A DNA stretch of 64,000 nucleotides, taken from the IMG/VR virus record IMGVR_UViG_3300047157_000152, positions 3,725 to 67,724 of that record. One strand, given 5' to 3'. Position numbers and translations under genes: made by a program. This stretch comes from a virus. Below, piece by piece: positions 5,803 through 61,989 of this stretch (positions are counted from its first letter, which is position 1; each line of letters begins with the position of its first letter). The notes under the pieces are model-generated. The model was given only the letters and a program-made list of their open reading frames with translations, searched no databases and was not told where the DNA came from.

Positions 5803-5809
5803 ATACTTA

Positions 5810-5840: not shown

Positions 5841-6246
5841 AATTTCTGATATAAAAGTCAAGCATAAATTTCATTCTTGCCATAGTGTTCCATATTTTAA
5901 CTCTAGTGTACTATTGTAGATATATGTTTTAAGTTTACCTTCGTCAGTTAAAAACATTTGTCTACGCTCTGATTTGTACACTGGATTTAGTTGATAGTTA
6001 GATGAGCAAGAGTTTACATTTCTTACATAACCTGATTTATACACCTGCTAGTCTTAGTTTATTTTTAGACCATAGTTGGCCACCTTTTTCTTGATGGTAC
6101 AGGAAATTCAAACTCTCTTGTACCATTTTTAGCTTGACGCTGTGTTGTGACTTCTTTGATATTATACTCGACTAGTAGTCGTCTAGCGAACGCATTTTCA
6201 AGCGATTCTTGTTCGAGTTTCCATGTTTGATTTCTTTATTATCCAT
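5812..6246 (-). pseudogene. Multiply frameshifted ORF (pseudogene or sequencing indels)
   Basis: Protein-like segments (MDNKEI / WKLEQESLENAFARRLL...PVP / KNKLRLA / VYKSGYVRNVNS... / MARMKFMLDFY) lie in successive different frames. Confidence 0.5.
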
Positions 6247-6260
6247 TGTAGTAAGGTTTA

Positions 6261-6458
6261 TTAATTAGTATTAAAGTTAATTGATTTAGCTACATTTTGT
6301 CGCCATTGCCACTCATTCTTGCGATACTCATAGCTATTACACCATTTTTTGACAGCAGTTACTTGTGGTATTTCACCGTATTTTGCTTCATAGTCAAGAC
6401 ATTGTTGTAACTTTGCTTTGATTTCTGAAGCGGGATAGTCTACATATTGTTTATTCAT
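6261..6458 (-). CDS. Hypothetical protein (probable start MNKQ at 6458)
   Basis: ORF track; ATG 5 nt after promoter copy 5. Confidence 0.65.
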   Translation of the reverse strand: MNKQYVDYPASEIKAKLQQCLDYEAKYGEIPQVTAVKKWCNSYEYRKNEWQWRQNVAKSINFNTN

Positions 6459-6463
6459 ATTAT

Positions 6464-6494
6464 TATTATCCATTAGTAGTCGTATTTAGTTTGT
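6464..6494 (-). promoter_or_regulatory. Early promoter-like motif, copy 5
   Basis: Exact motif match. Confidence 0.8.
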
Positions 6495-6605
6495 GTGTTA
6501 GTACAATACCTTCTACATCTGTTCTTGTTAGTTCATCACTCATTTGTTTGAGTATTGCCCAAGTAAGATCTACTTTACCATAATGTGTATTTAAAGTGTA
6601 TATCA

Positions 6606-6806
6606 TTAGTTATATATTCCAAAGTTAGCATTAGCGGTATCTATTTCACCTGTTAATAATCCTACTATCATAAATAGTATACCTGATAGTGCTAGTGGTA
6701 GCAATGTACCAAAAGCTATTAGTTCTAGTATTACTAGATGTAGTGGTTTAGATTTTACGTATTTAGTTACGGCAGGGATAAATCCTCTGAATTTAAAGTT
6801 TTTCAT
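6606..6806 (-). CDS. Small membrane protein
   Basis: ORF track; long hydrophobic segment. Confidence 0.6.
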   Translation of the reverse strand: MKNFKFRGFIPAVTKYVKSKPLHLVILELIAFGTLLPLALSGILFMIVGLLTGEIDTANANFGIYN

Positions 6807-7847: not shown

Positions 7848-8002
7848 ACTATTCAAATACTCTCTATATACTACTAGTAAACCTTACTAAAAACCTGTAA
7901 TATTATTAACCATAGCGCGCTTTACCAAAAGTCCGTTAAAATAAAATCATACAATTAGCTGTAAAATATAAAAAACCAGCATAACGATAAAAAAAAACAA
8001 AT

Positions 8003-8656
8003 ATGGCTTTAATTTCTTCCTATCCTTTACTCACCCCTCAACTGGGTGATAAAATACTAGGTTCTAACTTAGTAGATGCCTCGGGCAACCCAGTATTAAA
8101 CAACCCAACATGTCAATTTAACATTACCGATGTAAAAGCATTAGTTGATCAAAACTATGTACAGCAAATAGAGTCATCTTCAGGTGTTGCTTCTCAAGCT
8201 TCTACACAAAACACACCTTATAGCATACAATTTGGAGCTCCGCAAGGAACAGATGCTAACAATGTACAATTATTAAAAACAGTTAATACCGATGCAGAGG
8301 CTAGTAAAGTAAAATTTAATGCATTAGGTACATATAACATAACATTAACATATTCTGTTGGTGTCAACCAAGGTGCTAACACGCCTTATTTAATATTTAG
8401 AACATTAAAAGACGGTGCAGCACAAGAAGGACCAACTGTTGTTGTAAATGAGGCTTTCACTGCAGTGAATAAACCTATCCCACTTATTATTCCAGTTACA
8501 ATACATGTAACAGAACCTTGTTATTACAATTTTCAAATGATGCGTAGCAACGCTGGGGCAAATGATGGTGGTTTGGTTAAAAACGGTACACCAATAAACG
8601 TTGCGGGTGTTACAGAGCCTAGCATAGCAACAATAAAAATATCTAAACTAATATAA
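8003..8656 (+). CDS. Putative virion/tail-associated protein
   Basis: N-terminus MA.I.SYP..TP...D.ILG shared with the next tail-fibre gene; beta-rich. Confidence 0.6.
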   Translation: MALISSYPLLTPQLGDKILGSNLVDASGNPVLNNPTCQFNITDVKALVDQNYVQQIESSSGVASQASTQNTPYSIQFGAPQGTDANNVQLLKTVNTDAEASKVKFNALGTYNITLTYSVGVNQGANTPYLIFRTLKDGAAQEGPTVVVNEAFTAVNKPIPLIIPVTIHVTEPCYYNFQMMRSNAGANDGGLVKNGTPINVAGVTEPSIATIKISKLI

Positions 8657-8657
8657 C

Positions 8658-11600
8658 ATGGCAATAATATACTCATATCCAACGGTAACACCTACGTCAG
8701 AGGACCTTATATTAGGTACAGATATAAATGCTGATGGTAAACCAACTAAAAACTTCACAATACAAAGTATTGTAGATATAGTACAAGGAGGTGCAGCAGG
8801 ATTAGGTGCTGTAATAAAAATAAATTCTAGCGCAAAAGATCCAGCTACAGCCGCTAATCAATCTGCAATAGATTTTTTAAATATTAGTGGTACTGGTACC
8901 GCTTCATTTGGAGCATTAAGTGATGGTACTTTACAAATAACCGGTGGTAATTTAACCACTTCAGGTAGTGGTATATTTAATCAAATAACTGGAACATTAC
9001 AAACCGCTGCTCAACCAAACATAACTAGCTTAGGCACACTCACTAGCTTAATAGTTAATACGTCAGTGACAGGTACAGCTGTAGTTACAACATTAGCGAC
9101 ACCTGGTGATGATTTAAAAATAGCAAGTACAAAAGCTATTGTAGATTACATAGCGACAAAACCTAATAAAGAAACATTAGCTGAAACTCTTATCGCCGGC
9201 CAAACAACTGGTGGTAAAGATATAATTGTATCTGCAGGCGATGATATTACTTTCACAGATACATCAAAAATTATCCTTGGCGCTGGATCAGATGCTACAG
9301 TAGAACACGATGGCACAGATTTAAAAATAATAAACACTGAAGGTAAAACTACAATATCAAATAACTCAGGTGATATAGAAATAATAGCTACAGCAGCTAA
9401 TAAAAAATCTAAAATAAGCGGTAAAGTAGGTGTTGAATTACAATATGACGGTAGTAAGACGTTTGAAACAATTTCAAATGGATCAATTGCTACGGGTACT
9501 TTCAATACTACAGGGTTGTTAACTGCTCAAACAAACTTATGGTTTAAAGATAAAATAGGTATTGGTGGTGCAGGTGCACCTAATTACGGTACATCAGGGC
9601 AAGTTTTAAGTTCCGGCGGTGCTTTAGGAGATGCAACTTGGGAAGATCTTACTCCTTTATATACTTGGATTATAGAAGCAGATAGTGGAACCGGTCAACC
9701 TTATACAGTTGCTTCAGGTGATACAATTGATTTTGTTGGAGGCGATAATATAAATACATCGTGGGTTAATGCAGGTAAAGAATTAAAAATCGATGCTACT
9801 GGTGTAGTACAAAAAGGTACAGGTGCCGCAACTCAAGTAGCGTATTGGACTGATGCTAATACTATAGCTGGTGATGCAGGTATGACTTATGACGCAGCTA
9901 ATGATTATTTAACTTTAGCAGGCACAGTAAAATCCGGCAAGTTTACAACAACTGCGGGTACAGCAACTTGGATAACAACTGTTTTAGATGGTTTTACGTC
10001 TATAACTTCAGATCTTTTTGTAGGTGATGCAACAGCTGCAACAGTTCCATCAAGCCCACCGTGGCCAGCAAATCCTACAGCTAATGTACAATTTCAAGGT
10101 AATGCTTCTAGTGCAAACGTATTAAAATTAGTTGGTGCTGTTTCTATATCACAAGGTGCCGCACCTTCAGCTGGCGCAGAAAATACTCAAGGTGTTTCAA
10201 GTGTTGCTGGTCAAACATATACAAGTGGCGGTAATATTACAATTGAAACAACTTTAGCTTCTACAGTTGCAACAGCTAAAAGATTAACAAACTTACCTAC
10301 TCCAACATCCGCTGCAATTGCCGCATCTGATACTATACTTGCTGCTATGGCAAAACTGCAAGGTCAAATAAATGGTTTAGCTGGTAGCCTTGCTTTTGAA
10401 GGAACGTGGGATGCTAGTGCTGGTACTGCACCAAGTGCTTCACCAGTCAATGGTCAGTTCTGGATTGTATCTGTTGCTGGTAATACAGATTTAGATGGTA
10501 TCACTGATTGGAAAGTTGGTGACTGGGCAATATATGTAGACAATGGAGCCGGTACAGATGCTTGGCAAAAGTTAGATCAATCAAACGAAGTGTTAGGATC
10601 TGGTACTGCTCAAAAAATGGCTATGTGGTCAGGTACAGTTGGAGACGCTTCTCAAACTTTAGCAACTGGTCTTATAGAACAAAATGCTACAAATAATTTA
10701 ATTACAATAGGTAATTCAGGTTCATTATTAGTTGAAGGTAATACAACGTTAGGTGATAGCAATACCGATACAGTGTTAGCAAAAGGTCCTGTTACATTAA
10801 ATGAAACACTTAATATAAAAAAAGGTATAGAGGTTAATGGCGCAGCCGGCACAAGCGGTCAAGTATTAACATCAGGTTCTGGTTCAACAGCAGTAATGTC
10901 ATGGACAACACCTACTACAGGTACAGTTACAAATGTAGCTTTAACAGAAACAGGTAATGCACTTACTATAACTGGATCTCCAGTGACTAGCAGTGGTACA
11001 ATTAATATAGCTGGTGCAGGTTCTGCATCTCAATATATAAACGGGGAATTAAATTTAGTTACTTTCCCAACTGTAGATAACTACGTTAGCTGGACGCTAG
11101 CTGGTGATTCAGGGCCTAGTCAAACTATAAGTTCTACAAACACAGCTACTTTTGCTGGAGGATTTGGTATTAGTACAGTTGCTAGTGCCACTGATACATT
11201 AACAACAGCTATTGATATAGTAGGTACAGATAATGCAATTGCAGGATTAACTGCAGCAACTCCTTTAGCCACAGATACTTTATGGTTTAATGATATAAGC
11301 GATTCTAATACTATTAGAAAAGCAACTATATCAGATATTGTAGCTTTAGGAGATCAAGGTTTACCTGCAGTATTAGCTATTAACAATACAACTGGGTCAA
11401 CTAACATAGTTGTTCAAAAAAGCATACAACTGCCTGTAACAAGTACAAATAACAACTCACCAACAGACGTAGGTGTTATATCTTTTGGAGGAACATATAC
11501 TAATGGTAATAGAATTTATAACCACGCATCAGGCGGAACTCTTAGGATTGAAGGAAGTGATAACCTACAGTTATATGCACCTAACTTTCAAGTATCAAAT

Positions 11601-12350
11601 TCTAATGGTGTTTTAATAACGGCTGGAGATACAGGTACTAGCTTGCGTTATCAAGGTTCAGAAAAATTAACAACTACAAATACAGGTATTGAGGTAAGTG
11701 GTACATCTTCAAGTTTTGCAGGTAATGTTACTATTCCAGGCGCTATATCTGCTGGTGCTAACGGAGGTTTAAGAATTCATTCTTCAGGAACAAAATTTTT
11801 CAATGTAACAGCAGCAAACGCGGCTAGAACTAATATTATGGATATTGGTGCTCCAGATGCTAGATTTAAAAGTTTATATTTAGGTACCGATGCTGATATA
11901 CAAGGTAACGTGCAAATTGACGGTAACTTAACTGTTGATGGTCATATAATCCACGGTGGTGGTGGTGGTGGAACAGGTAAAGGTGGACAGTTTACTAAAC
12001 TATATACAACAGGAAACGCTGGTGTAGCGGGAGTTGCTTTTACAATAGATAGAGCTACAACAGGCGCTATGGTTTTTGATGTTATGCTAACTAGTGATAC
12101 ATCTACAACTTGTGCTGTTGCTAAAAAATATACAGTTGTTTGCACTTATGGCGCAACCGCTCCTATATATAATAAAATATTAGACACAGGGCCAGATGGT
12201 TCAAATGACTTTACAGTAGCTTTTGCTGATGACACATCTAATACAAAAATAAAATGTACAATAACACCAACCGGTGTAGGTACTCAAAAAATAGGTATTA
12301 CAATTGACTTAGGGTTTGGACAAAACGATGCAACGGTTGTAATGAATTAA
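8658..12350 (+). CDS. Tail fibre protein (1230 aa)
   Basis: G/T/A-rich, GTSGQVL.S.G hinge motifs, FEGTWDA...W.V...G.T.LDG.TDW.VGDW fibre motif. Confidence 0.8.
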   Translation: MAIIYSYPTVTPTSEDLILGTDINADGKPTKNFTIQSIVDIVQGGAAGLGAVIKINSSAKDPATAANQSAIDFLNISGTGTASFGALSDGTLQITGGNLTTSGSGIFNQITGTLQTAAQPNITSLGTLTSLIVNTSVTGTAVVTTLATPGDDLKIASTKAIVDYIATKPNKETLAETLIAGQTTGGKDIIVSAGDDITFTDTSKIILGAGSDATVEHDGTDLKIINTEGKTTISNNSGDIEIIATAANKKSKISGKVGVELQYDGSKTFETISNGSIATGTFNTTGLLTAQTNLWFKDKIGIGGAGAPNYGTSGQVLSSGGALGDATWEDLTPLYTWIIEADSGTGQPYTVASGDTIDFVGGDNINTSWVNAGKELKIDATGVVQKGTGAATQVAYWTDANTIAGDAGMTYDAANDYLTLAGTVKSGKFTTTAGTATWITTVLDGFTSITSDLFVGDATAATVPSSPPWPANPTANVQFQGNASSANVLKLVGAVSISQGAAPSAGAENTQGVSSVAGQTYTSGGNITIETTLASTVATAKRLTNLPTPTSAAIAASDTILAAMAKLQGQINGLAGSLAFEGTWDASAGTAPSASPVNGQFWIVSVAGNTDLDGITDWKVGDWAIYVDNGAGTDAWQKLDQSNEVLGSGTAQKMAMWSGTVGDASQTLATGLIEQNATNNLITIGNSGSLLVEGNTTLGDSNTDTVLAKGPVTLNETLNIKKGIEVNGAAGTSGQVLTSGSGSTAVMSWTTPTTGTVTNVALTETGNALTITGSPVTSSGTINIAGAGSASQYINGELNLVTFPTVDNYVSWTLAGDSGPSQTISSTNTATFAGGFGISTVASATDTLTTAIDIVGTDNAIAGLTAATPLATDTLWFNDISDSNTIRKATISDIVALGDQGLPAVLAINNTTGSTNIVVQKSIQLPVTSTNNNSPTDVGVISFGGTYTNGNRIYNHASGGTLRIEGSDNLQLYAPNFQVSNSNGVLITAGDTGTSLRYQGSEKLTTTNTGIEVSGTSSSFAGNVTIPGAISAGANGGLRIHSSGTKFFNVTAANAARTNIMDIGAPDARFKSLYLGTDADIQGNVQIDGNLTVDGHIIHGGGGGGTGKGGQFTKLYTTGNAGVAGVAFTIDRATTGAMVFDVMLTSDTSTTCAVAKKYTVVCTYGATAPIYNKILDTGPDGSNDFTVAFADDTSNTKIKCTITPTGVGTQKIGITIDLGFGQNDATVVMN

Positions 12351-12358
12351 AATAAAAT

Positions 12359-14551
12359 ATGGCTAATTTATCTAATATAAATAATAAGTTCCTAGTAACA
12401 ACTGGAGGCAACGTAGGAATAGGAACCACTTCGCCTGCTAGTGTTTTACATATAAAAGATAATTCAGCTAACCCTACACAATTAAGCATACAATCGAATG
12501 ATTATTCAAGGGCTGAAGAAATTAATTTTTTAAACCCTTCTACAAGTGCAATTTCAGGTCAAATAAAATATTACACAAATCCTACGGTTGAATATATGTC
12601 TTTTTCAACTTCTAACAATAGTGCTGCTGCCGAACGTATGCGTATTACAAACACCGGCAACGTCGGGATCGGAACAGTAAATCCAAAAACAAATTTTGAG
12701 GTAATAGGTGGTTTAAATATAAGTACTAACACAACTAGTGCAACAACCACAACTATGCGTATTGGGTCTTATGGTGCAAGTTCCCAAACATATTATGGAG
12801 CAAAACTTATAGCACATACAAATTTTACTTCAACAGCAAATGCTGATTTATCTTTTGATTTAGGAGGTCTTGGAGAAGTTATGCGACTTCATTGTAATGG
12901 TTCGGAAACAAGAGTAGGAATTGGAACGACTACGCCTAATGAAAAATTACAACTCGCTGGTAATCTTAATGCATACGCTCCTGGTGGTATTGATGCTGGT
13001 TTATTTGCAAGTACTGCTGCTGGCTCAACAACTATTGCCTTAAGGTCAAGTGGAGTAACTCATTTTAATGGCGGCGACGTAGGAATCGGGACAAGTTCGC
13101 CTGGTCATAAACTTAATATTGTAGGTGCTAATAACACCACTGCTGTTGGAATTGATTTTCCTTCTGCAAGTTATGATTTTTCAGCTAACAGCACTAGTGG
13201 TTATACTACTTCATTCCATATGGATAACACTGGTACTTACATTGGTAGCAACAGTGCGGGTAGAGCTTTAATTTTTCAAACAAATGATACAGATAGATTA
13301 TATATAAACGGAAATACAGGAAACGTCGGGATTGGGGTTACTGATCCACAAGCAAAACTTGAAGTTAAAGGCCCAAGCGCATCCCCGGCTGACGGTAATG
13401 AAGTAATCTCTGTAACAAATACAACTGGAGGAAGTAAGCTTCTTCTGGGGGTAGCAGAAAACCAATACGGATGGATTCAGTCAGCAGAAGGCGGTACGTA
13501 TAGGAATCTTCTTTTAAATCCACTTGGCGGCAACGTCGGGATCGGAGTGGTTGGGCCTACAAGTATTTTGGACATTAGACAGTCAATAGTGCCAAGAATT
13601 ACTTTAGTAAAAAATGGAGTATTAAGTTGGTATATAGGAAATGTTCTTCAAGGCACCAGTAATAATTTTACAATTGGCACAGATTCTGGTGGCAACAACA
13701 ATATATTAAACATTACGAACACAGGCAACGTCGGGATCGGGGAGGCTTCGCCTTCTGGAGCTTTGCACGTGAAATCTTCCACTGCCACTACTACAGGTAT
13801 GGTTAGATTACAGAATGATATGGATAATAACTACGAAACCCTACGTATTGAGTCGTTAGGAAATTATGATGCTCATATTGGATTTCTAGCAAACGGAACT
13901 TCTGATTATTGGTGGGGAATTGGAATAGATTATTCTGATTCTGGTAAATTTAAAATTTCGGGAGATAATATATTATCAGTTAATACTAGACTAACTATTG
14001 ACACTTCAGGCAACGTCGGAATCGGGACGACTTCGCCTGGTGATGCAAAGTTATATGTAAATGGAGGAACAACTCTAGGGGGAAGCAATAACACGAGCGC
14101 TGGAGCTACAAGAATATTTGGAGATATAAAAAGACCTCAAGCTAATAATTTTGTTAGAAGAAATTATAATTTAACAGCGGGTTCAAGTAGTTCATTATAT
14201 AGTATAGCAAGACAATGGCATGACCACGCTAACTGGGGATTAGGAAATATTAATGTTATAATGTGGGGTATTTATTATGGTCAAGGTCAATATAATAAAG
14301 CAGATTTTTCCTGTAGGTATGGTTATAGTGGTGGTGGTGCCGACGTACAGACTAACTTTAACCCCAACGGCATGGTTGTGCCATCTTGGACATCAGCAAC
14401 TCAAGTTTCTGGAAATATACATTATAGAGATTTACAAATTCAAATACCAGCATATTATCAAATTTCTTTTGAAATAATAAGCCCAGGATGTGTACAAACT
14501 TATAATATAAATAACACGGCTAATAATACGGTATATTTATATCCTCATTAA
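12359..14551 (+). CDS. Modular tail fibre with GNVGIGTTSP repeats (730 aa)
   Basis: Eight GNVGIG-type junctions separating divergent modules. Confidence 0.8.
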   Translation: MANLSNINNKFLVTTGGNVGIGTTSPASVLHIKDNSANPTQLSIQSNDYSRAEEINFLNPSTSAISGQIKYYTNPTVEYMSFSTSNNSAAAERMRITNTGNVGIGTVNPKTNFEVIGGLNISTNTTSATTTTMRIGSYGASSQTYYGAKLIAHTNFTSTANADLSFDLGGLGEVMRLHCNGSETRVGIGTTTPNEKLQLAGNLNAYAPGGIDAGLFASTAAGSTTIALRSSGVTHFNGGDVGIGTSSPGHKLNIVGANNTTAVGIDFPSASYDFSANSTSGYTTSFHMDNTGTYIGSNSAGRALIFQTNDTDRLYINGNTGNVGIGVTDPQAKLEVKGPSASPADGNEVISVTNTTGGSKLLLGVAENQYGWIQSAEGGTYRNLLLNPLGGNVGIGVVGPTSILDIRQSIVPRITLVKNGVLSWYIGNVLQGTSNNFTIGTDSGGNNNILNITNTGNVGIGEASPSGALHVKSSTATTTGMVRLQNDMDNNYETLRIESLGNYDAHIGFLANGTSDYWWGIGIDYSDSGKFKISGDNILSVNTRLTIDTSGNVGIGTTSPGDAKLYVNGGTTLGGSNNTSAGATRIFGDIKRPQANNFVRRNYNLTAGSSSSLYSIARQWHDHANWGLGNINVIMWGIYYGQGQYNKADFSCRYGYSGGGADVQTNFNPNGMVVPSWTSATQVSGNIHYRDLQIQIPAYYQISFEIISPGCVQTYNINNTANNTVYLYPH

Positions 14552-17500
14552 ATAAATAAATGGCATCATTATCTAATATAAACGGGATATTTGACGTCCA
14601 TTCTACTGGGGCTATACTTTTTAGTACATCTCATGGAACTTCTGGGCAGATATTAAAATCAAATGGTAATGCAGCTCCAACTTGGGTAGCAGCTTCAACT
14701 GTTATTGGTGGACCATATTTACCTTTGACAGGTGGCACGCTTACTGGTAATTTAGCTATTAGCGCTTCTAATAGCTTAACAGTTAATGGACAATTTAATA
14801 TTAATGGTACTGGTAATTGGTCGTTTAGAACCGTAAGTGGAGGAAACCTTATTTTAAAAGATGAATCAAACAATGCGGATAGAGTTGATTTTCATACAGA
14901 TGGACAAGTTGAAATTTTAGCAGCAGGAAGTAGATTTTATCCAAGTATAATTTTTAATAATGATATAAACACAGGTATATATCATGCTGCTTCTGACACT
15001 TTAGGGTTTTCAGGTGGAGGAAATGAATTAATGACATTGAACTATAGTAATGGTATTAAGCTTTCACAATATGGTTCAGGATCATACACAGGTACAACAG
15101 CTTATAATTTAGCTGTAGATTCAAGTGGTAATATAATTGAAACAACAGATGGTGGTGGTGATATAACAGGTAGTGGAACAACAAATACTGTAGCTAAATT
15201 TACAGGTGCTAAAGCAATAGGTAATGGACCTATAACTTTTGCAACTAATAACTCAACTTTTGCAGGAACTGTACAAACAACAGGTGTAAAAACGCCATAT
15301 ATTGAATCAGCAGCAACAAACCAAAGTTTATTTTTATATGCCAATGGTAGTGGTCATATATATTTTGGTGATTCTACTAACGGAACAAATCTTTATCATT
15401 ATAGTAATTCTAATGACGGTAAATATACTTCTTATGGTTTTGATGGGAATTATTATACAATTTCAACAACAGCAACAAGCGGTGTTAAAATTAACGATCC
15501 TCTTCTTGTTATTGGTAGCGCTACTATTACAAACACTGGCGCTAACCCTACAATTACTTTAATAGAAAATAGCGGTGGAACTCAAAATGCTAAAATAGAG
15601 TTTGATCAGGCTGGTGAAAATCAATTATACATAACAACTAATTATGTAAGTCCTAGTGATAGTAATAGAATATTGTTGCAACCAGGTACTTACCCAGCTT
15701 TAATAGCATCGGGTGGTGCTAATGGCGCTATTAATACAAAAGTAGAAATTTCAGGAACTTTACTAGCTAACAGAAATATACAAACTCCAAACAGTGATCT
15801 TAGCACTGGATCAAATCCAACTAATTTTGGTATTTATACTTCAGAAATAAGATTAATAGATACTCCTAATGGTGGATTACAAAAATGTAGAGTAATTACA
15901 GATAATTATGGGGAATGGATTTTAGTAGGTAGGTATGCTGCTAGCGCAATGTCAGCTATTCAAAACACATGGAGCTCAGTCAGTGGACTATCACTTGACA
16001 CAACTCAAAGCGCAACCACACAATTTTCTGCTGATTTTGGTGATAGTTATCCTACAGAAGTTAGGATAATGGGGGCTACAGATTTTACTAAATGGAGAGA
16101 TAATAGAACAATTGACTTTATTTATGGTGTTCCAGAAGGAAGGGCATGGAAATATTTCTTTAGTGGAGGCGCAGAAAATGGCATGACATTTGTTGGCCCA
16201 AATCACAGTGGTAATAATAAGTATGGATGGAACATAAATGGTAGTTATGATGGATTCGGTAGGTGGGTAAACACAACTCAGACTTCTGTAGGTATGTCAG
16301 ATTCTAATGTTACAAACCCATCTGCGGCATATACAACAGCCACAACAAATGCTTTTAATTGGCATCCCGCTAGTGATGCTAAAATGACCGTTTCAGCTAC
16401 AAGAACATTTAGTGGACAAGATAGTTATGAAACAGCAGGATTTGGTAAAGATGATGCTAATCAAGGATTTTTTGATGAATATCCTAATGAAGTTACAAAT
16501 ATGCAAGGTGGAATTGATTTTAGTTCTGCTGTATGGGTGTTAATAAAACTACCTACTGCTATAAGCAGTGGTTCTGGTGGTGGTTCTGGTAATCAGTGGG
16601 CTGGAGGGCCAACCACAATACACAATACTAATACTGGTTCTGTCGGTATAGGAACATTTAATCCATCGGTTACAGGAAAAGGATTACAAATTCAGAACAT
16701 AGGGAACGATACGACAGCTTCGTTAAAATTAACAGGTCATAATAATACAGGCACACCAGGTGCAGCAACGTCTACAGAACTAAAACATATAGGAGATAGT
16801 TTAAAGTTTGCAATCAATCATGCGGGCACAGATGCGTTAACTATTGGTAGTAGCGCCAGTACAATAGGATTTACACTTTCTAACACTACTGAATTAGGTA
16901 CTTATCCAACAGGAGCTGTGAAAAGAATTAGAATGGCTCAAGGTGGTGAAATACATTTTGGAGATACAACAACCACTGCGCCTTTAGGTGTAACAGAAGG
17001 AGAATGGAATAATTTTGCAGATCAAGATAGTTTAGGTATATATTCTCGTAATCATTTTAGCGTTTATTCTTACGGTGGAACATATACAAATCCCAAATTA
17101 AGAATAGATGATGCTGGATCATATTTTCAAGGATCAAACTTTGGTATTGGTGTTACTAACCCTACTTCAGGTAATTTAGTTTTACCTCAAGAAGAATCTA
17201 ATCAGTTTAAAATAGCATTTACTGGTGCTTCTTCTAGCTCTGGTATATCCACTGTTGATCAAAGTGGCTCTGGTTTGTATATAGGAGCTAACTCAAGAGT
17301 AAATAATTCAGGTGTTATAACATATCACGATAGTGCATTAGATAGTAGTGGAATTTATTTTGACGGTTGGAACGGTAATGATATGGAGTTTTATACTGCA
17401 CTTTCAGGAACCCCACAAAAAAGAATGGTTATAGATGCTTATGGTAGAGTAAATATCTATCAACAACTATGCGTGGGATCAACAACCGCGCCAACTAATG

Positions 17501-20500
17501 AAAAACTATTAGTTCAAAGTGGCTTGGGTAATGGTTCTGAAATATGGAGGTTTGGAACAAGTGGTCGTTATACTTTTACAGGGCATAAATTTTTTAATTC
17601 TATAACAGGAACTGCCACAAGTGATGGGTGGTATACAATAGGTAATGTAGGTGACAGTTCTTCAGTAATAATAAACATAATGACTGCGGCACACAGTTCG
17701 GCTACGATACTAGCATCTAGAGGTTATGGCCCTTCAAATGTCGCAAGGATACAAGTGCTTTCTTCGACTAAAAATGCTAATGGTGGTTATGCAAACATAA
17801 AAGCTGTAAGAATAAATGCAGGTGGATTAATAGACATGCAATTATATTGGAATAGCGGGCCAAATGTTTCGGTACATTTAGCTTATTATGGGCTAGGTTG
17901 TGATATGCCAACAACTTTAGCACTCTCTGTTGGAGGCACTGGTGTTTATCCGTATAATATTATGGATACAGCTACATTTAGAAATACAGCTGCCTCTGCT
18001 AGAGTTGCAGGTGAACTAGATGTTGCTAGTCAAGTACATGCTAGTAGTAATATAAATGTTTATAGCACAAGTAAAATATATTTTAATGCAACAACTAATA
18101 GTGATCAATATATAGGTGCAATATCAAATAATGATTTAGACATAGCAGCTGGTGATGATATAAATTATAGATCTAATTTTAGTAGATTTTTTAGTGGTAC
18201 AACAGAACATGCTAGAATATCAGGTCTTAATAATCAAAATAATTGGATTGCAAATGCTACTGGTGGAAAATTAGGTGTTGGTAATGCTTCTCCGCAAACT
18301 ACTTTACACACTGGGCCTACAACTACAATTACTAATGTATTTACAGCTAGATTTGCTGCAAGTAACTTTTTTGCTAGTGGTGGAAATAGTATGTTTTACG
18401 TTCCTGATACAGCTGCAAATATAATGATGTTTGGCAGTAATCAATTTGGAACTAATCAAATAGAATTTTACCATAAAAATCCGGGAACAAGTCAAGCTTA
18501 TGTAGGGAGAATATCTACATCTGGTTCAGCAACTTCATACGTTACAAGTTCAGATTATAGATTAAAGGAAAATATAATTCCTTTGAGTGATTCTATATCT
18601 AGAATTAATCAATTAAAACCAAGTAGATTTAATTTTATAGAAGAACCTGGTAAGGTAGTAGATGGATTTATAGCGCATGAAGTACAAGATATAGTTCCTG
18701 AAGCTATTGTGGGAGAAAAAGATGAAGTTGATGAAGAAGGTGGTATTATACCGCAAGGTATAGATCAAGCTAAGTTAGTACCACTATTAGTAGCGGCAGT
18801 ACAAGAATTAGAAGCAAGAGTAAAAGAATTAGAAAATAAATAATATGGCATTATTAACAAATATAAATGGTAAATTCAGCGTAAGTGACGCAGGTGCAGT
18901 AAGATTTAACGATGCGTTTACTTTTCCGACAGTAGATGGTACTGCTAATTACGTATTAAAAACAAATGGTAGTGGGCAACTAGCTTGGGCGCCTGATGCA
19001 AATACAGGAACTGTTACAGGATCTGGTACAGCCAATACAATGCCTGTTTGGACAAGCGCAAGCGCTTTAGGAAATAGTATAATTACTCAACCTAGCAGTG
19101 CTAATGTTAGAGTATCTGGTAGTAGTGTTTATTTTAGTGTTACAGACACTAGCGCAGCAGCTAGAAATATAGACATAGGCCATTGGGTTGCAGGCCAAAC
19201 CAATATAGAGTCTGTTGGTGGAATATTATCTATTGGAACACAATCAAATCACGATATTGTTTTTGAAACAAACGGAAGTACTAAAGCTACTATTTTAGCT
19301 AACGGCAACGTCGGGATCGGGACGAATTCGCCTAGTTCAAAACTTCAAGTAAGCGGTGATGCTTATGTTACTGAAGAATTTGGGCAAGGTGTTGCTATAG
19401 CTAACAAAGTAACTACTTACGGCGCAGAGTTTAGAAGTTCTGGAGCAAGTGCACAAGTGTTTTTTGGTAGGTCAGGCAACGACATAGGTTCAGGAGCTAT
19501 AGGCGCAGATTCAAGTTATGTTTTTAGAGTGTGGAAGCCAACTGATTTTTCACAACCTTTTGTTATAGAGCAAGGCGGAAACGTCGGGATCGGTACGACT
19601 AGTCCTGATTCTAAGCTAGATGTAAAAGGACCATCAGCAACACCCGCTGACGGAAACCAAACGCTTTCAATTACAAATTCAACAGGAGGAACGCAGTTGA
19701 ATTTAGGTACTGCTGAAAATTCTTATGGATGGATAGAAGCAAGAGAAGGAAGTACTCTTAGAAATTTATTAATCAATCCTAATGGTGGAAACGTAGGAAT
19801 ATCTGAAACAAGTCCTGATTCAACTCTTACAGTTGGAGGAAATTTTACAGCAACTACAACAAAACCAACAGTAAGTGTTTCTAACATGACAAGTGGTGGT
19901 TCTTTAGGAATTAGAGGACTATCACCTATATTAGCATTTGATAAAACAGCAGGTGGTGTTCCAAAAATATTAATGGATGGTGGTGGTTTAGAATTTAAAA
20001 ATGGAACATTAGATGCCCAAGGCGATGTCCATTTAAAAATAGACAGTTCTGGAAACGTAATTATTGGAAATTCAAGTGTTGATAATCCAAACTCATTAGA
20101 TAAAGTTTTAGAAATTGAACATGGTGGCTCTGTTGGAGTAATATTAAACGATTCAAGAGATACTCCTATTGGATTAGAAAATAGAGGTGCTGTATTTCAT
20201 TTAACACATAATACAAACTCAAGATTAGTTGTTGATGGTGCTTCAGGAAAAGTAGGAATTGGGGTTACAGACCCTGATGCTAAATTAGAAATAAAAGGTA
20301 CTGGTGCATCAACTGGTTTAACTTTTAAAACAACTGATTCTTCAGATAATGAAATATTTTATATTAAAGATGGTGGAGTAGTTGGCGTAAGATATTATCC
20401 ATTTAAAATAGGTGTACCTAGTGGAACTGCTAATGTAGCTAATACTAGATTTCAAATAGCCACGACAGGTGGTGATTTTGTAGTGTTAAATGACGGAAAA

Positions 20501-21508
20501 ACCGGGATCGGGACGACTTCGCCTGGAAGAGGTTTAACTATTGACAAAAGTAATGCAAACGCTGCGTTAGAAATAATAAAAAAGAACACGACTAATCAAA
20601 TTGTTTATTTAGGTACTGGTTCCAGTGGAGGAACTGATGACCCTCTTTTACGAATGTTCCATAATACCACAGAAAATATTAGATTATATACAACTGGTGA
20701 TAGTTGGATTAATGGAGGCAACGTCGGGATCGGAACGACCCATCCTGACTCTAAATTAGAAGTTATAACATCTGGTGCAAATAGTGTTTTAGAATTAGAT
20801 AATTCAAACACTAATTACACTGTAATTCAATATAACGCTAGTGGTGCGACAAAAGGATTTTCTGGATTTAATGCAGGATTTATGCTTTTCGGTGGGGAAG
20901 CTGGAACTACCCTAAGATTACAATCTGGTGGCTCTTATGCTGCTACGATTTTGGAAAATGGTAATTTTGGAATCGGAACGACTTCGCCTTTGAGTACATT
21001 AGATTTAGGAATTAATGGTGGACAAAAGTTTTATGTATATGCTAATGGTAGTATTAGGTCAGGAATGGGTATTGATTTGTCTGGAAGCTCAAGAGAGTTA
21101 AGTATATTCCATACTAGTTCAAATAATATTGATGGTGATATAAGTTTAGGTTTAAGAAACGAAACATCAGGCCAATATGTTGAAAGAATGAGAGTGCAAG
21201 GTAACGGAAACGTAGGGATCGGAACGACTGGGCCAGTTAATAAATTAGGAATACAAGTTGCAGCAAATTCAAACACAAAAGCAATTAATATATACAGCCT
21301 AAATACAAGTCCTAATTCTTATACAAGTATTGGTTCGCAGTATTCAATTTCTAATACTTATGTTGAATCAGAAATAAGGTTTGGAAATGAAACACAAAGC
21401 GGAGGGGGTTCTTATTTAGGTTTTGTTGCGGGTGGGTCAAATTCGGGTAATACAGAAAAAATGCGTATTACAAGCGCAGGCAACGTCGGGATCGGAGAGA
21501 CTTCACCT
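12407..21508 (+). repeat. Dispersed GC-rich DNA repeat GGCAACGTCGGGATCGGRACGACTTCGCCT in two tail-fibre genes
   Basis: Copies start at 12656, 13073, 13319, 13529, 13724, 14009, 19304, 19577, 20495, 20717, 20960, 21206, 21479 (weaker at 12407, 12911). Confidence 0.85.
14560..18843 (+). CDS. Tail fibre with C-terminal peptidase S74-type intramolecular chaperone (1427 aa)
   Basis: SDYRLKENI...I..LKP..FNF...GFIAHEVQ...PEA.....LVPLLVAAVQEL..RV..LE. Confidence 0.88.
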   Translation: MASLSNINGIFDVHSTGAILFSTSHGTSGQILKSNGNAAPTWVAASTVIGGPYLPLTGGTLTGNLAISASNSLTVNGQFNINGTGNWSFRTVSGGNLILKDESNNADRVDFHTDGQVEILAAGSRFYPSIIFNNDINTGIYHAASDTLGFSGGGNELMTLNYSNGIKLSQYGSGSYTGTTAYNLAVDSSGNIIETTDGGGDITGSGTTNTVAKFTGAKAIGNGPITFATNNSTFAGTVQTTGVKTPYIESAATNQSLFLYANGSGHIYFGDSTNGTNLYHYSNSNDGKYTSYGFDGNYYTISTTATSGVKINDPLLVIGSATITNTGANPTITLIENSGGTQNAKIEFDQAGENQLYITTNYVSPSDSNRILLQPGTYPALIASGGANGAINTKVEISGTLLANRNIQTPNSDLSTGSNPTNFGIYTSEIRLIDTPNGGLQKCRVITDNYGEWILVGRYAASAMSAIQNTWSSVSGLSLDTTQSATTQFSADFGDSYPTEVRIMGATDFTKWRDNRTIDFIYGVPEGRAWKYFFSGGAENGMTFVGPNHSGNNKYGWNINGSYDGFGRWVNTTQTSVGMSDSNVTNPSAAYTTATTNAFNWHPASDAKMTVSATRTFSGQDSYETAGFGKDDANQGFFDEYPNEVTNMQGGIDFSSAVWVLIKLPTAISSGSGGGSGNQWAGGPTTIHNTNTGSVGIGTFNPSVTGKGLQIQNIGNDTTASLKLTGHNNTGTPGAATSTELKHIGDSLKFAINHAGTDALTIGSSASTIGFTLSNTTELGTYPTGAVKRIRMAQGGEIHFGDTTTTAPLGVTEGEWNNFADQDSLGIYSRNHFSVYSYGGTYTNPKLRIDDAGSYFQGSNFGIGVTNPTSGNLVLPQEESNQFKIAFTGASSSSGISTVDQSGSGLYIGANSRVNNSGVITYHDSALDSSGIYFDGWNGNDMEFYTALSGTPQKRMVIDAYGRVNIYQQLCVGSTTAPTNEKLLVQSGLGNGSEIWRFGTSGRYTFTGHKFFNSITGTATSDGWYTIGNVGDSSSVIINIMTAAHSSATILASRGYGPSNVARIQVLSSTKNANGGYANIKAVRINAGGLIDMQLYWNSGPNVSVHLAYYGLGCDMPTTLALSVGGTGVYPYNIMDTATFRNTAASARVAGELDVASQVHASSNINVYSTSKIYFNATTNSDQYIGAISNNDLDIAAGDDINYRSNFSRFFSGTTEHARISGLNNQNNWIANATGGKLGVGNASPQTTLHTGPTTTITNVFTARFAASNFFASGGNSMFYVPDTAANIMMFGSNQFGTNQIEFYHKNPGTSQAYVGRISTSGSATSYVTSSDYRLKENIIPLSDSISRINQLKPSRFNFIEEPGKVVDGFIAHEVQDIVPEAIVGEKDEVDEEGGIIPQGIDQAKLVPLLVAAVQELEARVKELENK

Positions 21509-21928
21509 ACTGGTAAACTTCACGTGAAAGATGGTAGTGTTAATGCATTGTTTGTTACAAGTACAACTTGTGGTAATGTTGGTATAAAAACAACCTCACC
21601 AAATGCAAGTTTAGTTGTTAAAGGAAATGTTAGTTATAGTTATAATAACTATAGCTCTGTAGCAAATACTTGGTCAAACGCATTAAACTTTAGTGGTTAT
21701 CCAGCTGGATTATATCAAATTAATATATGTAAGCAAAGTAACGCAAGCGCATATATAATAGCTCAAATAAAGTGGAGCGGAACTGCTGGTACAGTTATTA
21801 ATACTGTAACTTCTTTTCAATATGGCATTACATTTAGTGGTACACAATTACAATCAATAATAAATACAACAACAGCAAGCTCAATAAGTGCACAATGTTT
21901 AGTGACATACGAACTTGCGTGTGTATAA
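18845..21928 (+). CDS. Modular tail fibre with GNVGIGTTSP repeats (1027 aa)
   Basis: About eleven GNVGIG-type junctions; N-terminus related to the two previous genes. Confidence 0.8.
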   Translation: MALLTNINGKFSVSDAGAVRFNDAFTFPTVDGTANYVLKTNGSGQLAWAPDANTGTVTGSGTANTMPVWTSASALGNSIITQPSSANVRVSGSSVYFSVTDTSAAARNIDIGHWVAGQTNIESVGGILSIGTQSNHDIVFETNGSTKATILANGNVGIGTNSPSSKLQVSGDAYVTEEFGQGVAIANKVTTYGAEFRSSGASAQVFFGRSGNDIGSGAIGADSSYVFRVWKPTDFSQPFVIEQGGNVGIGTTSPDSKLDVKGPSATPADGNQTLSITNSTGGTQLNLGTAENSYGWIEAREGSTLRNLLINPNGGNVGISETSPDSTLTVGGNFTATTTKPTVSVSNMTSGGSLGIRGLSPILAFDKTAGGVPKILMDGGGLEFKNGTLDAQGDVHLKIDSSGNVIIGNSSVDNPNSLDKVLEIEHGGSVGVILNDSRDTPIGLENRGAVFHLTHNTNSRLVVDGASGKVGIGVTDPDAKLEIKGTGASTGLTFKTTDSSDNEIFYIKDGGVVGVRYYPFKIGVPSGTANVANTRFQIATTGGDFVVLNDGKTGIGTTSPGRGLTIDKSNANAALEIIKKNTTNQIVYLGTGSSGGTDDPLLRMFHNTTENIRLYTTGDSWINGGNVGIGTTHPDSKLEVITSGANSVLELDNSNTNYTVIQYNASGATKGFSGFNAGFMLFGGEAGTTLRLQSGGSYAATILENGNFGIGTTSPLSTLDLGINGGQKFYVYANGSIRSGMGIDLSGSSRELSIFHTSSNNIDGDISLGLRNETSGQYVERMRVQGNGNVGIGTTGPVNKLGIQVAANSNTKAINIYSLNTSPNSYTSIGSQYSISNTYVESEIRFGNETQSGGGSYLGFVAGGSNSGNTEKMRITSAGNVGIGETSPTGKLHVKDGSVNALFVTSTTCGNVGIKTTSPNASLVVKGNVSYSYNNYSSVANTWSNALNFSGYPAGLYQINICKQSNASAYIIAQIKWSGTAGTVINTVTSFQYGITFSGTQLQSIINTTTASSISAQCLVTYELACV

Positions 21929-21958
21929 TTAATAAATAAATAAATTAAAACAATAAAA

Positions 21959-22318
21959 ATGGCAATTACTTACAAATGGACAATTAACCAAATGAACGCT
22001 CATATCCAGGCTCAAGGTGAAGATAACGTAATCTTTACTGTTCATTGGACTTACTCAGGTTCTGAAGAATCTGGAGGAAAAACCTATTCAGCATCACAAA
22101 TAGGTGCTCAAGGTTTTCAATACACATCAGGAGATCCTTTTGTGCCTTATGAAGATACTGAAGCTTTTGAAGCTGTAGTAATTGGTTGGCTTGAGGGAGC
22201 ATTAGATGTACCTTCTATGTCAGCTAGTATTGAAGCTCAGATACAAGCAGAAATAACACCAGTAAATGAAGATTTATACTTCACATGGCAAAACCCACCT
22301 GTACCACCGGTTGAATAG
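21959..22318 (+). CDS. Small acidic tail-associated protein
   Basis: Y.WTI....VHW...FVPYE....VIGW type protein commonly found after marine phage fibre genes. Confidence 0.55.
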   Translation: MAITYKWTINQMNAHIQAQGEDNVIFTVHWTYSGSEESGGKTYSASQIGAQGFQYTSGDPFVPYEDTEAFEAVVIGWLEGALDVPSMSASIEAQIQAEITPVNEDLYFTWQNPPVPPVE

Positions 22319-22419
22319 TGTAAGTTTTGTAAAAAACAAGTGATAGTATAACTAAACCTATATTGCTAGCGAGGCAATATTAACCAAAAATAAAGTTTAA
22401 CCCTTAAAACCAAAACACG

Positions 22420-22751: not shown

Positions 22752-24308
22752 ATGTCAAATGCAATTGTAAAGAATCTGAGCTTTGGTTCAGATGCTAAAG
22801 ATAATGTGTTTGCTGGTATTACAAAACTTACACAAGCTGTTAGCTCCACGTTAGGGGCTAGCGGCAAATGTGTTATTCTTGAAGATACTATAGGCAAGCC
22901 AATTATCACAAAAGATGGTGTAACAGTAGCAGAGTCTGTTATATTACGAGATCCAGTAGAAAACATGGGAGCAACTTTATTAAAAGAAGCTGCTAGAAAA
23001 ACTGTTAAAGAAGCTGGTGATGGTACAACAACCGCTACAGTGTTAGCACACTCTATCTTAGAAGAGGCTTATAAATTAGAAAACGAGCTTACATCAAGAG
23101 AAATTAAAAAAGGTATTTTATCTACAACTCAAAAAGTGATTGATCACTTACAGGCAAATTCTATACCTGTACAAGGAGATATGATAGATCAAGTAGCGAC
23201 AATATCAACAAACAATGACCCAGAGCTTGGTAAAATTATAGCTGATGCATTTAGGTCTGTCGGTAAAAATGGTGTTGTTGTTTTAGAACCAACTGAATTA
23301 TCAGATACTACTTTTGAATTAGTAGATGGTGTTCCATATAATAGAGGTTTAAAAAATATACATTTTGTAACAAACAAAGAGTCTAAAACTGCTGAACTAG
23401 ATAAACCTTTGGTTTTATTAGTTGAATCAGAAATAGAAAATATAAGAAAAATACAAAATGTTTTAGAACATGTTATTAAAAATAACAGGTCTTTGCTTAT
23501 TATAGCTGACGTTAGCCAACAAGTGTTATCAGCTTTAGCTATGAATAAAGTTAAAGGCAATATAAAAGTAAATGTAATAGACGCGCCTGTGTACGGTATA
23601 AGTAAGAAAGAAACATTAGATGATCTTTCAATATTAACAGGAGCTACAATTATAAACGAAGATTTAGGTGATGATATTGATTTAATAGGCCCTGAGCATT
23701 TAGGTGAAATTAAAAAAAGTGTCACTGAGCAAAACGAAACAGTTTTACATTTAATAGAAACAACTGAAGAAGTTAAGTCTATGATTAAAAAAATGGAAGA
23801 TGAATTAGTTGAGTGCACTGACCCTGTATTAACTGTTAAGTTAGAAAAAAGATTAGCTAGATTATCTGCTAAAGTAGCTATTGTAAAAGTAGGTGCTAAC
23901 TCTGAAGTTGAGTTGCAAGAAAAACAAGCTAGAGTTGAAGATGCTATATGTGCAACTAAAGCTGCTATCAAACAAGGTATAGTTCCTGGTGGTGGTATTG
24001 CTTTATTAAATGCGGCTAATGATATAGAAACTAGTAGTAAGTCTGAAGAAGCACTGCTAGAAGCTATTAAGGCGCCTTTTAAGACCATCTTACATAATGC
24101 AGGTATAGAACAATACGAAATGCCAAGTGTATCAGGAGATGGAATAAACGTGGTTACAGGAAATATGGTAAATATGATTGAGTTTGGGATTATAGATCCT
24201 TTACTCGTAACAAAAAGTGCATTAAACAATGCTGCTTCTGTTGCTACTACTATTTTGTCAACCGATTGTGTAATTAATAATCTTAGAATTGATGAAGGCA
24301 ATAGGTAG
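22752..24308 (+). CDS. groEL: Chaperonin GroEL (phage-encoded)
   Basis: ITKDGVTVA, AGDGTTTATVLA, GIVPGGG, GIIDP motifs; lacks GGM tail. Confidence 0.96.
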   Translation: MSNAIVKNLSFGSDAKDNVFAGITKLTQAVSSTLGASGKCVILEDTIGKPIITKDGVTVAESVILRDPVENMGATLLKEAARKTVKEAGDGTTTATVLAHSILEEAYKLENELTSREIKKGILSTTQKVIDHLQANSIPVQGDMIDQVATISTNNDPELGKIIADAFRSVGKNGVVVLEPTELSDTTFELVDGVPYNRGLKNIHFVTNKESKTAELDKPLVLLVESEIENIRKIQNVLEHVIKNNRSLLIIADVSQQVLSALAMNKVKGNIKVNVIDAPVYGISKKETLDDLSILTGATIINEDLGDDIDLIGPEHLGEIKKSVTEQNETVLHLIETTEEVKSMIKKMEDELVECTDPVLTVKLEKRLARLSAKVAIVKVGANSEVELQEKQARVEDAICATKAAIKQGIVPGGGIALLNAANDIETSSKSEEALLEAIKAPFKTILHNAGIEQYEMPSVSGDGINVVTGNMVNMIEFGIIDPLLVTKSALNNAASVATTILSTDCVINNLRIDEGNR

Positions 24309-61372: not shown

Positions 61373-61529
61373 AGCATTTTATATTATATTTATCGTGGAT
61401 CGCAATCAGATCCTTCCATTTTAGATAACCTCTTTTATTAACTGTCCATTTAATATAAGTATCGATCTTACGTTCCTTATATTTAGTTCTAGCTATATGT
61501 TTAGAGGCTAGTTTGTTTTTTCTTTGCAT
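61365..61529 (-). CDS. Small basic hypothetical protein (54 aa)
   Basis: Manual translation MQRKNKLASK... Confidence 0.5.
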   Translation of the reverse strand: MQRKNKLASKHIARTKYKERKIDTYIKWTVNKRGYLKWKDLIAIHDKYNIKCYG

Positions 61530-61989
61530 TTGTTCTAAGGTTTTTCCTCATAATCTCTATTTGTGCAACTGTTTCATCACAGTCTTTTTGATTCTGAGGT
61601 TTAAATAACGCAATACCAGGTGAATGTTGTGTGATCCATGCTTTAAATAATTTCCATCTAAGTGGAAATGATTCGTTAGCTCTACCTTTACATTCGATTA
61701 CAAAATCTCTACCTACAAAATCTGGTTTGTATTTTATAGGTAAAATTTTTTTACAACCTCTATCTTTATATTCACCTTTGCCATTAGCTTGTTTTTCAAA
61801 GCATACACCTTCTAAGTCAAAACCGTTAAGCAGAGTATAGCTTGTAGGCTCATACTCGGCTACGATTCTAGCTTCTTTCAAAGCTTTATACATGTATACT
61901 TCTAATCCAGATGCAAATTGAATGCCATCATACATGGCTTTCTTTGCTCTAACAGGACCGCGTTTTTTTCGTTTATAAGATTTCTTCAT
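61501..61989 (-). CDS. PD-(D/E)XK endonuclease, T7 endonuclease I / resolvase-like
   Basis: F.SGLE, YKPDF, VIECKG motifs. Confidence 0.8.
   Translation of the reverse strand: MKKSYKRKKRGPVRAKKAMYDGIQFASGLEVYMYKALKEARIVAEYEPTSYTLLNGFDLEGVCFEKQANGKGEYKDRGCKKILPIKYKPDFVGRDFVIECKGRANESFPLRWKLFKAWITQHSPGIALFKPQNQKDCDETVAQIEIMRKNLRTNAKKKQTSL

Follow-up and report, generated by a model that had tools for sequence, protein, structure and literature searches.

The stretch of DNA analysed here (the window; 64,000 nt) corresponds to bases 3725-67724 of a 67.7-kb IMG/VR virus record (IMGVR_UViG_3300047157_000152; CheckV completeness 100%). It carries two modular tail-fibre genes, g730 and g1027, whose modules are joined by copies of a peptide close to GNVGIGTTSP; these joints and the DNA that encodes them are our subject. 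The guanine-plus-cytosine (GC) content is ~35% genome-wide and about 29-38% in individual 2-kb segments. The two genes belong to a fibre block of four large + strand genes:

8658-12350, + strand: g1230, fibre-block gene of 1230 aa (open reading frame).
12359..14551, + strand: g730, modular tail-fibre gene of 730 aa (open reading frame; PHROG tail fiber phrog_18345, E 4e-32; PDB sequence matches to the Bdellovibrio MAT fibres 8ond and 8ol4).
14560..18843, + strand: g1427, fibre of 1427 aa with a C-terminal Peptidase_S74 chaperone (Pfam).
18845..21928, + strand: g1027, modular tail-fibre gene of 1027 aa (phrog_9942, E 1.7e-32; PDB matches 8ond, 8ojn (tip, residues 866-1001) and 8oml).

No Pfam match was obtained for g730, g1027 or g1230, and a megablast search of the fibre block against GenBank phages returned no match; tblastn with g1027 detected only fibres at 24-35% identity, from cyanophages, pelagiphages and others. 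The initial annotation described both modular genes as strings of divergent modules joined by a GNVGIGTTSP-like peptide, and a search for G-[NDK]-[VFT]-G-I-[GSK] followed by T-T-S-P bore this out, with 7 copies in g730 and 10 in g1027 (17 in all) between modules that cannot be aligned with each other. Each gene also holds one variant outside the search pattern (TRVGIG at 12908 in g730, GNVIIG at 20051 in g1027), and in g1027 the tip domain follows the final joint. The exact copies of the 12-mer CGTCGGGATCGG previously listed in the joints starting at 12656, 13529, 13724, 19304, 19577, 20717 and 21479 were all recovered, the 12-mer itself lying 5 nt further on (12661, 13534, 13729, 19309, 19582, 20722 and 21484). 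Among the listed near matches, those in the joints at 13319, 14009 and 21206 held with one mismatch (12-mer at 13324, 14014 and 21211), whereas those at 13073, 20495 and 20960 differ at 2 to 4 of 12 bases. All 10 matches lie on the + strand, and 100 shuffles yielded none. The joints are listed below with the match ends that fall in or near them; L-numbers denote fetched viral loci compared by blastn with positions 8001-22400, and X16 record 17 is a 1605-nt contig from an estuary metagenome.

12407..12436, + strand: joint 1 of g730 (GGC AAC GTA GGA ATA...), a breakpoint; L013 matches from 12407 onwards, L127 up to 12423.
12656..12685, + strand: joint with exact 12-mer; the L013 match ends at 12645, 11 nt upstream.
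12908..12937, + strand: variant joint TRVGIGTTTP, recognised after the fact; the L127 and L009 matches begin at 12914.
13073..13102, + strand: joint GDVGIG (GTA GGA ATC), a breakpoint; matches end at 13092 and 13120, and X16 record 17 departs from g730 at 13102.
13319..13348, + strand: joint, 12-mer with 1 mismatch (motif search).
13529..13558, + strand: joint with exact 12-mer (motif search).
13724..13753, + strand: joint with exact 12-mer (motif search).
14009..14038, + strand: final joint of g730, before the tip domain; the sole copy of 6 folded with a better-than-shuffle hairpin (motif search, folding).
16636-16665, + strand: joint-like copy in g1427, mostly in ordinary codons (motif search).
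19304..19333, + strand: joint with exact 12-mer, a breakpoint; the L131 match (96%) ends at 19325.
19577..19606, + strand: joint with exact 12-mer, a breakpoint; the L136 (96%) and L127 (100%) matches begin at 19577 and 19580.
19787..19816, + strand: joint (GTA GGA ATA) at the left edge of a 459-bp block that L127 lacks (blastn, alignment).
20051..20080, + strand: variant joint GNVIIG, recognised after the fact; the L012 match begins at 20051.
20246..20275, + strand: joint GKVGIG, a breakpoint and the right end of the 459-bp block; L012 ends at 20263, L128 and L127 begin at 20246.
20495..20524, + strand: joint GKTGIG, a breakpoint; L128 and L127 end at 20527, L132 and L133 begin at 20504.
20717..20746, + strand: joint with exact 12-mer, a breakpoint; L133 ends at 20763, L127 begins at 20709.
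20960..20989, + strand: joint GNFGIG, a breakpoint; L127 ends at 20976, L130 begins at 20969, and X16 record 17 re-enters at 20969.
21206..21235, + strand: joint, 12-mer with 1 mismatch, a breakpoint; L130 ends at 21229, L128 begins at 21205.
21479..21508, + strand: joint with exact 12-mer, site of an extra block of ~550 bp in L129; L129 1-185 ends at 21495 and L129 739-1655 begins at 21488.
21572..21601, + strand: last joint-like copy GNVGIK, in ordinary A/T-ending codons (motif search); the L127 match begins at 21610.

The joints share a consensus spelling, GGC AAC GTC GGG ATC GGR ACG ACT TCG/AGT CCT (~24-30 nt), found in this phage and in module-sharing marine phages. Binomial comparison of the motif codons with the remainder of g730 and g1027 revealed strong enrichment of all five codons that had been singled out as uncommon: GTC (9/15 in the motif vs 1/93 elsewhere, P 9e-15), ATC (12/17 vs 2/112, P 6e-18), GGG at the fourth codon (10/17 vs 8/186, P 3e-10), TCG (7/11 vs 6/176, P 2e-8) and ACG (7/11 vs 13/163, P 5e-6). 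GGC was likewise enriched (9/17 motif copies, P 3e-5), as was AAC (12/14, P 2e-5), and ACT and CCT were weakly enriched (P 0.07 and 0.03). Compared pairwise at the nucleotide level, the 17 copies were on average 0.71 identical within the 24-nt core and 0.30-0.48 identical in the 24-nt blocks on either side, so recent duplication of whole modules did not produce them. High GC at third codon positions (GC3) formed an island limited to codons -1 to +8, with background levels beyond, and the third bases were A/C-ending at codons -1 to 2 and G/T-ending at codons 6 to 9. GTC and GGG co-occurred (Fisher P 0.015), which gives two copy types, GTC-GGG-ATC and GTA-GGA-ATx. The statement that similar peptides outside these joints use ordinary codons was correct for the copy at 21572, and only partly so for the g1427 copy at 16636, which is mostly ordinary but contains GTC. 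A second codon-locked spot was noticed at codon -5 (e.g. 12637-12639), where the Arg of an upstream M-R-I strand is encoded by CGT; across AT-rich loci CGT was used in 60% of 83 copies, compared with a background of 9%.

The same peptide is spelt differently in other phages. A search with a degenerate DNA pattern that ignores synonymous differences brought in 116 new viral loci, 59 of which have less than 40% GC and together hold 180 motif copies. Codon frequencies in these copies were 0.09 for GTC (background 0.06), 0.07 for GGG (0.06), 0.17 for ATC (0.08) and 0.18 for ACG (0.06); because they use ordinary codons, the spelling in our phage is not dictated by translation of the peptide. A further 11 loci, holding 76 copies, were retrieved via other g1027 peptides and are thus unbiased for motif codons. 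Here the frequencies were 0.39 for GGC (background 0.09), 0.82 for AAC (0.25), 0.42 for GTC (0.04), 0.37 for GGG (0.07), 0.51 for ATC (0.04), 0.53 for ACG (0.06) and 0.76 for ACT (0.41). The same residue takes different synonyms at different positions (Gly as GGC, then GGG, then GGG; Thr as ACG, then ACT), which argues for a single nucleotide sequence and against generic rare codons or a generic GC bias. The GC-rich spelling is specific to the module-sharing gene pool, and other AT-rich phages use ordinary codons. The earlier suggestion of conservation at the DNA level beyond the needs of the peptide is thus upheld both by the codon binomials and by the ordinary codons of the same peptide in other phages. 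The exact 17-mer occurred in at least 119 IMG/VR contigs, ~47 of them at 43% GC or lower among the matches listed. A pattern scan of 185,579 species genomes gave 10 scattered matches and no sign of a host-wide copy of the motif. Separately, a contig in a Flavobacteriaceae metagenome-assembled genome (L263; 34% GC) carries six joints in the consensus GC-rich spelling at ~5800-6800, as well as a 34-nt 97% match to window positions 14549-14582; this contig probably belongs to a related phage and was binned together with its host.

Adjacent modules were best matched, at 88-100% nucleotide identity, in different metagenomic phage contigs, and the matches ended in the motif. Along g1027, the best matches were L131 (19067-19325, 96%), L127 (19580-19800, 100%), L012 (20051-20263, 90%), L128 (20246-20527, 99.3%), L132/L133 (20504-20763, 96.9%), L127 (20709-20976, 98.1%), L130 (20969-21229, 88.5%) and L128 (21205-22400, 89.8%). 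When unique match ends away from contig edges were counted (≥88% identity, ≥150 bp), 23 of 31 fell within -6 to +48 of a motif start, compared with an expected 10-18% (P 2e-17 and 9e-12). Two of the eight ends outside this interval lie on the variant motifs (12914, TRVGIG; 20051, GNVIIG), three lie 8-11 nt before the motif start or 2 nt beyond the end of the interval, and one falls at the boundary between genes g1427 and g1027. Three-way alignments placed the switch of parent within 8-28 shared motif bases at 20246, 20495, 20717, 20960 and 21206. In these alignments L127 is missing the 459 bp from joint 19787 to joint 20246 and has a hybrid joint; L129 carries ~550 extra bp at joint 21479.

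Metagenome runs were compared as assembled contigs, and X16 record 17 consists of g730 sequence (12923-13102), 225 other letters and g1027 sequence (20969-21229). Its g730 side is 180 letters long; other joints of this kind were given no weight, their sides being mostly 20-31 letters, the length of a motif fitting two places. The pattern extends beyond this phage: in an all-against-all comparison of 107 AT-rich loci, with four duplicate loci kept in, 87 of 200 similarity ends inside motif-bearing frames lay in the motif (9.8% expected, P 3e-35), and 55 of 84 informative motif copies were breakpoints. The breakpoints in relatives that fall in the motif (23/31; 87/200) support the proposal that the joints are in-frame crossover points for insertion, deletion and exchange of modules. 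The refutation test set in the initial annotation, whether breakpoints in relatives miss the motif, did not refute it.

The initial annotation further described the motif as a quasi-palindrome and, from this, raised the possibility of a tyrosine-recombinase or attC-like site. Part of the palindrome is real: CGTC-N8-GACG is present in some copies, and the extended hairpin at 14001-14045 folds at -8 kcal/mol (z -2.27). The arms, however, measure 4 bp and occur in a minority of copies, only where the next codons read GGG ACG, and the other five folded copies gave z between -0.94 and +1.12, so that one copy in six beats its shuffles. AGT CCT, the commonest spelling in relatives, abolishes the outer stem. 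No tyrosine recombinase (PF00589; control positive in 14/14 genomes) or serine recombinase (PF00239) was matched in the 100%-complete record. Every motif copy is direct, and none was found inverted among 7 inverted repeat pairs. A tyrosine-recombinase core site or attC site was accordingly rejected for want of a cognate gene, for its 4-bp arms and for a hairpin not common to the copies, and a shufflon or DNA invertase was rejected since all sites are on the + strand and none is inverted. Site-specific recombination acting on the quasi-palindrome is thus largely refuted and retains next to no probability.

That no recombinase is visible was accurate for the window only, since just upstream the genome encodes an annealing protein and a RecE-like exonuclease. 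These two genes are adjacent, ~1 kb outside the window and within the 3.7 kb upstream of it; a resolvase-like gene lies inside.

G000:C1:2273-2779, - strand, outside the window: Erf single-strand annealing protein (PF04404, E 1.5e-26, 93.6 bits vs cut-off 25; phrog_155, 7e-32).
G000:C1:1543-2271, - strand, outside the window: exonuclease, RecE-like, PD-(D/E)XK (DUF3799, E 1.7e-24; phrog_412 'exonuclease VIII', 1.3e-34).
61501..61989, - strand, in the window: DUF1064 / Holliday-junction-resolvase-like gene (PF06356, E 7e-8; phrog_190, E 5e-12).

The resolvase-like protein is a possible partner of Erf and the exonuclease and may act at the joints. The Erf/Exo pair of phage D3 is reported to recombine short, diverged sequences far better than RecA, the advantage over the RecA pathway being 20-fold for identical and 100-fold for 22%-diverged substrates in the experiments described (PMC3945230). 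Because no site-specific recombinase was found, the copies are direct, only one of six folds better than its shuffles, and Erf, exonuclease and resolvase-like genes are present, recombination through short homology is the best mechanism; the homologous recombination named as an alternative in the initial annotation fits better than the site-specific reading.

We therefore read the codon-locked loop as an in-frame crossover point for homology-dependent exchange of modules between fibres, with a rough probability of 0.75. GNVGIGTTSP would be a structural loop found repeatedly at the boundaries of beta-helix modules in trimeric fibres, spelt by a near-fixed ~24-30 nt that forms an island of GC-ending codons in a ~35% GC genome. 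This island is the sole DNA identity between otherwise unrelated modules and would therefore serve as an in-frame crossover point for homology-dependent recombination. Partners in exchange could be co-infecting phages, paralogous fibre genes and direct copies within one gene, and the outcomes would be module swaps, insertions and deletions in which reading frame and domain boundary are always kept. The codon-locked DNA identity and the coincidence of mosaic breakpoints with the motif are direct observations, and from these we infer both the enzyme at the joints and the cause of the GC-rich spelling: the likely catalyst would be the phage Erf annealing protein with its exonuclease and resolvase, and host RecA may contribute.

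Several observations weigh against this reading. In the 107-locus comparison, 113 of 200 similarity ends lay outside the motif as defined, and any conserved motif would attract the ends of matches, however the mosaic arose; their coincidence with the motif puts crossovers at or near it and does not prove DNA homology as the cause of the crossovers. Breakpoint copies were no nearer the GC-rich consensus than unused copies (19.1 vs 18.7 of 24 bases, P 0.2-0.27). Synonymous identity in orthologous matches running through a joint (17 copies, + strand sites only; a test of low power) was not higher in joints than in flanks (24/47 vs 852/1543; 37/39 vs 2461/2493), and in one identity class it was lower (19/29 vs 336/384, P 0.003). 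These comparisons show no direct trace of purifying selection on the spelling; the two tests, both of low power, argue against a strong form of it and fit a continual reshuffling of joint variants. Erf was found in only 2 of 5 module-sharing records; 3 of the 5 are incomplete, and one 97%-complete record lacks it.

Some of these results would also be expected if a filter at the protein level acted alone, with recombination, illegitimate or homologous, occurring anywhere and only in-frame products joined at the loop being functional. The spelling would then not drive exchange and would simply have been left behind by shared ancestry and local gene conversion: orthologous comparisons show no excess synonymous conservation, breakpoints do not prefer consensus-like copies, and over half of the similarity ends (the 113 above) lie elsewhere. 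We nevertheless regard this as unlikely, since 9-12 of 15-17 copies use codons at 1-4% background while the module interiors cannot be aligned, so that continuing homogenisation or selection is needed, and since the junctions are seamless and scar-free, their overlaps spanning 8-28 shared bases. Another possibility is a cluster of rare codons that slows ribosomes at module boundaries and thereby aids co-translational folding or trimerisation. GTC, GGG, ATC, ACG and TCG are indeed all rare in the genome, the cluster sits at a domain boundary, and a GroEL-like gene follows the fibres. Position-specific choice among equally rare synonyms makes this quite improbable, however: the first Gly is GGC in 0.39 and GGG in 0.05 of copies, the Gly residues at positions 4 and 6 are encoded by GGG and hardly ever by GGC, and the first Thr is ACG and the second ACT. 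Moreover, the 180 same-peptide copies in 59 other AT-rich contigs use ordinary codons, and the GTC-GGG pairing (Fisher P 0.015) behaves as a haplotype.

Neither does a model in which GC-biased gene conversion, or else sequence-specific nicking or breakage of the motif, makes both the hot spot and the GC3 island account well for the pattern. In its favour, the island covers codons -1 to +8 and no more, the very stretch to which the crossovers map, and along it the third bases change from A/C-ending to G/T-ending, as noted above. A simple GC bias fails to explain the positional use of GGC and GGG or the preference for ACT, AGT and CCT, a Pfam scan of 54 proteins detected no HNH or GIY-YIG nuclease, and the third-base switch may just describe one consensus sequence; we give this explanation very little credence. 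Going beyond the crossover reading, the spelling might be no frozen accident but a 'standard adaptor' kept by lineage-level selection, its ~24-30 nt acting as a thermally stable seed for annealing that lets Erf-type proteins plug any module from a shared ocean-wide library into any fibre in frame; this idea is tentative and on balance doubtful. The GTC-GGG-ATC and GTA-GGA-ATA spellings would then possibly be compatibility classes of the adaptor and, if the idea is true, the adaptor would amount to a natural cloning-linker system for host range.

The host of this uncultured phage is likely a marine member of the Flavobacteriaceae, because the large terminase (31246-33450) has 44% identity to Flavobacterium phage terminases and every named organism among its 87 matched records is a phage of Flavobacterium, Cellulophaga, Tenacibaculum or Maribacter. 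The fibre gene was present in metagenome runs from 14 studies, covering seawater, viral, estuary and marine sediment samples. Tail fibres decide which bacteria a phage infects, and a fixed in-frame joint common to many ocean phages would explain a quick re-tooling of host recognition in marine Flavobacteriaceae phages. The joints would also offer phage engineers natural, tolerated splice points for module swaps. As the spelling belongs to the gene pool and not to the peptide, its role at the DNA level can be tested by synonymous recoding.

Other features were observed around the fibre block. Three consecutive fibre genes share the N-terminal peptide MA-x-L-[ST]-N-I-N-x-[KI]-F (12359-12400, 14560-14600 and 18845-18885), and the DNA before and at their starts (12359, 14560 and 18845) is likewise similar (repeat D14); this common start is probably a shared attachment adaptor, and it is possible that it is also a joint for whole-fibre swaps. 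L127 has homologues of g730 and g1027 without any gene between them. Directly after g1027, a DUF7936 gene (21959-22318, + strand) has 70-84% nucleotide identity in more than 10 otherwise different contigs and forms a constant border on the right of the variable fibre block. Some 0.8 kb downstream of the fibre genes, a gene for a GroEL-like chaperonin (22752-24308, + strand; Cpn60_TCP1, E 7e-58) could provide a folding helper for the large fibres. Farther away, a protein similar to the crAss-like phage muzzle protein (46617-48008, + strand; E 6e-9) followed by a gene of 2176 aa (49958-56488, + strand) suggests that this 68-kb Flavobacteriaceae phage has a podovirus tail of crAss-like architecture. 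A thymidylate-synthase-family protein (63061-63792, - strand; C-terminal part of the Pfam model only) adjoins a MazG-like pyrophosphatase (62292-63059, - strand), and the pair may form a nucleotide-modification pathway.

Among known systems, shufflons and the Gin/Cin/Min invertases also place in-frame sites in host-recognition (pilus, tail-fibre) genes, but with a dedicated recombinase and inverted sites, whereas the sites here are direct and no such recombinase was found. The joint peptide matches the Bdellovibrio MAT fibres 8ond (E 6e-8 and 3e-6), 8ol4 (2e-5) and 8oml, and the g1027 tip matches 8ojn (8e-5). MAT fibres carry 'capping loops' on a trimeric beta-helix, with the consensus V-G-G/N-pi-x-x-P-x-x-x-L (Caulton et al. 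2024, PMC10769870), a closely similar motif that is one residue shorter between V-G and P. Chimeric tips are a further shared feature (PMC10769870). The loop motif, the similarity to solved members and the S74 chaperone all point, from sequence, to MAT/S74-type trimeric beta-helix fibres; the joint peptide may correspond to the capping loop, a likeness that would explain its conservation at the protein level. DNA-level conservation or recombination at the loops is not addressed in the passages of that paper that describe them (PMC10769870). Phage Rad52-like recombinases (Red-beta, RecT, Erf) are described as driving mosaicism by relaxed homologous recombination (De Paepe et al. 2014, PMC3945230), and the present phage likewise encodes an Erf and exonuclease pair and exchanges modules via short, diverged homology. 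In the assays described there, the shortest longest-perfect-identity stretch was 11 bp, within homology regions of 300-3353 bp (PMC3945230), whereas here the entire homology is ~24-30 nt. GRINS parallel the joints in concept, since these repeats within modular genes also show recoding of third codon positions and a link to gene conversion from module to module. By definition they exceed 500 bp and 80% identity with a skew above 0.15 (2021, PMC8256042), and membership was rejected because identity here is limited to ~24-30 nt.

Text searches of the literature found no paper naming the joint motif. In T-even phages, the conserved motifs of gp37 are called 'His boxes'. The motifs of the T-even distal tail-fibre and adhesin genes gp37 and gp38 (glycine-rich in gp38), short and conserved between variable host-recognition segments, have been proposed as hot spots of recombination and shuffling (Tetart et al. 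1998 and Trojet et al. 2011, as cited in PMC12032242). Here the fibre is a trimeric beta-helix and the motif an inter-module loop, the two genes holding up to 19 joints; the exchanged units are entire modules (70-150 aa) and not loops, rare GC-ending codons spell the motif within an AT-rich genome, and the evidence comes from metagenomes only. Conserved motifs between variable segments, DNA-level conservation beyond the peptide and mosaic breakpoints in the motifs are found here nonetheless, and the joints are a further case of the known T-even-type recombination at conserved motifs in fibre and adhesin genes. The principle being known from T-even phages, this case adds breadth and quantification, not a new mechanism.

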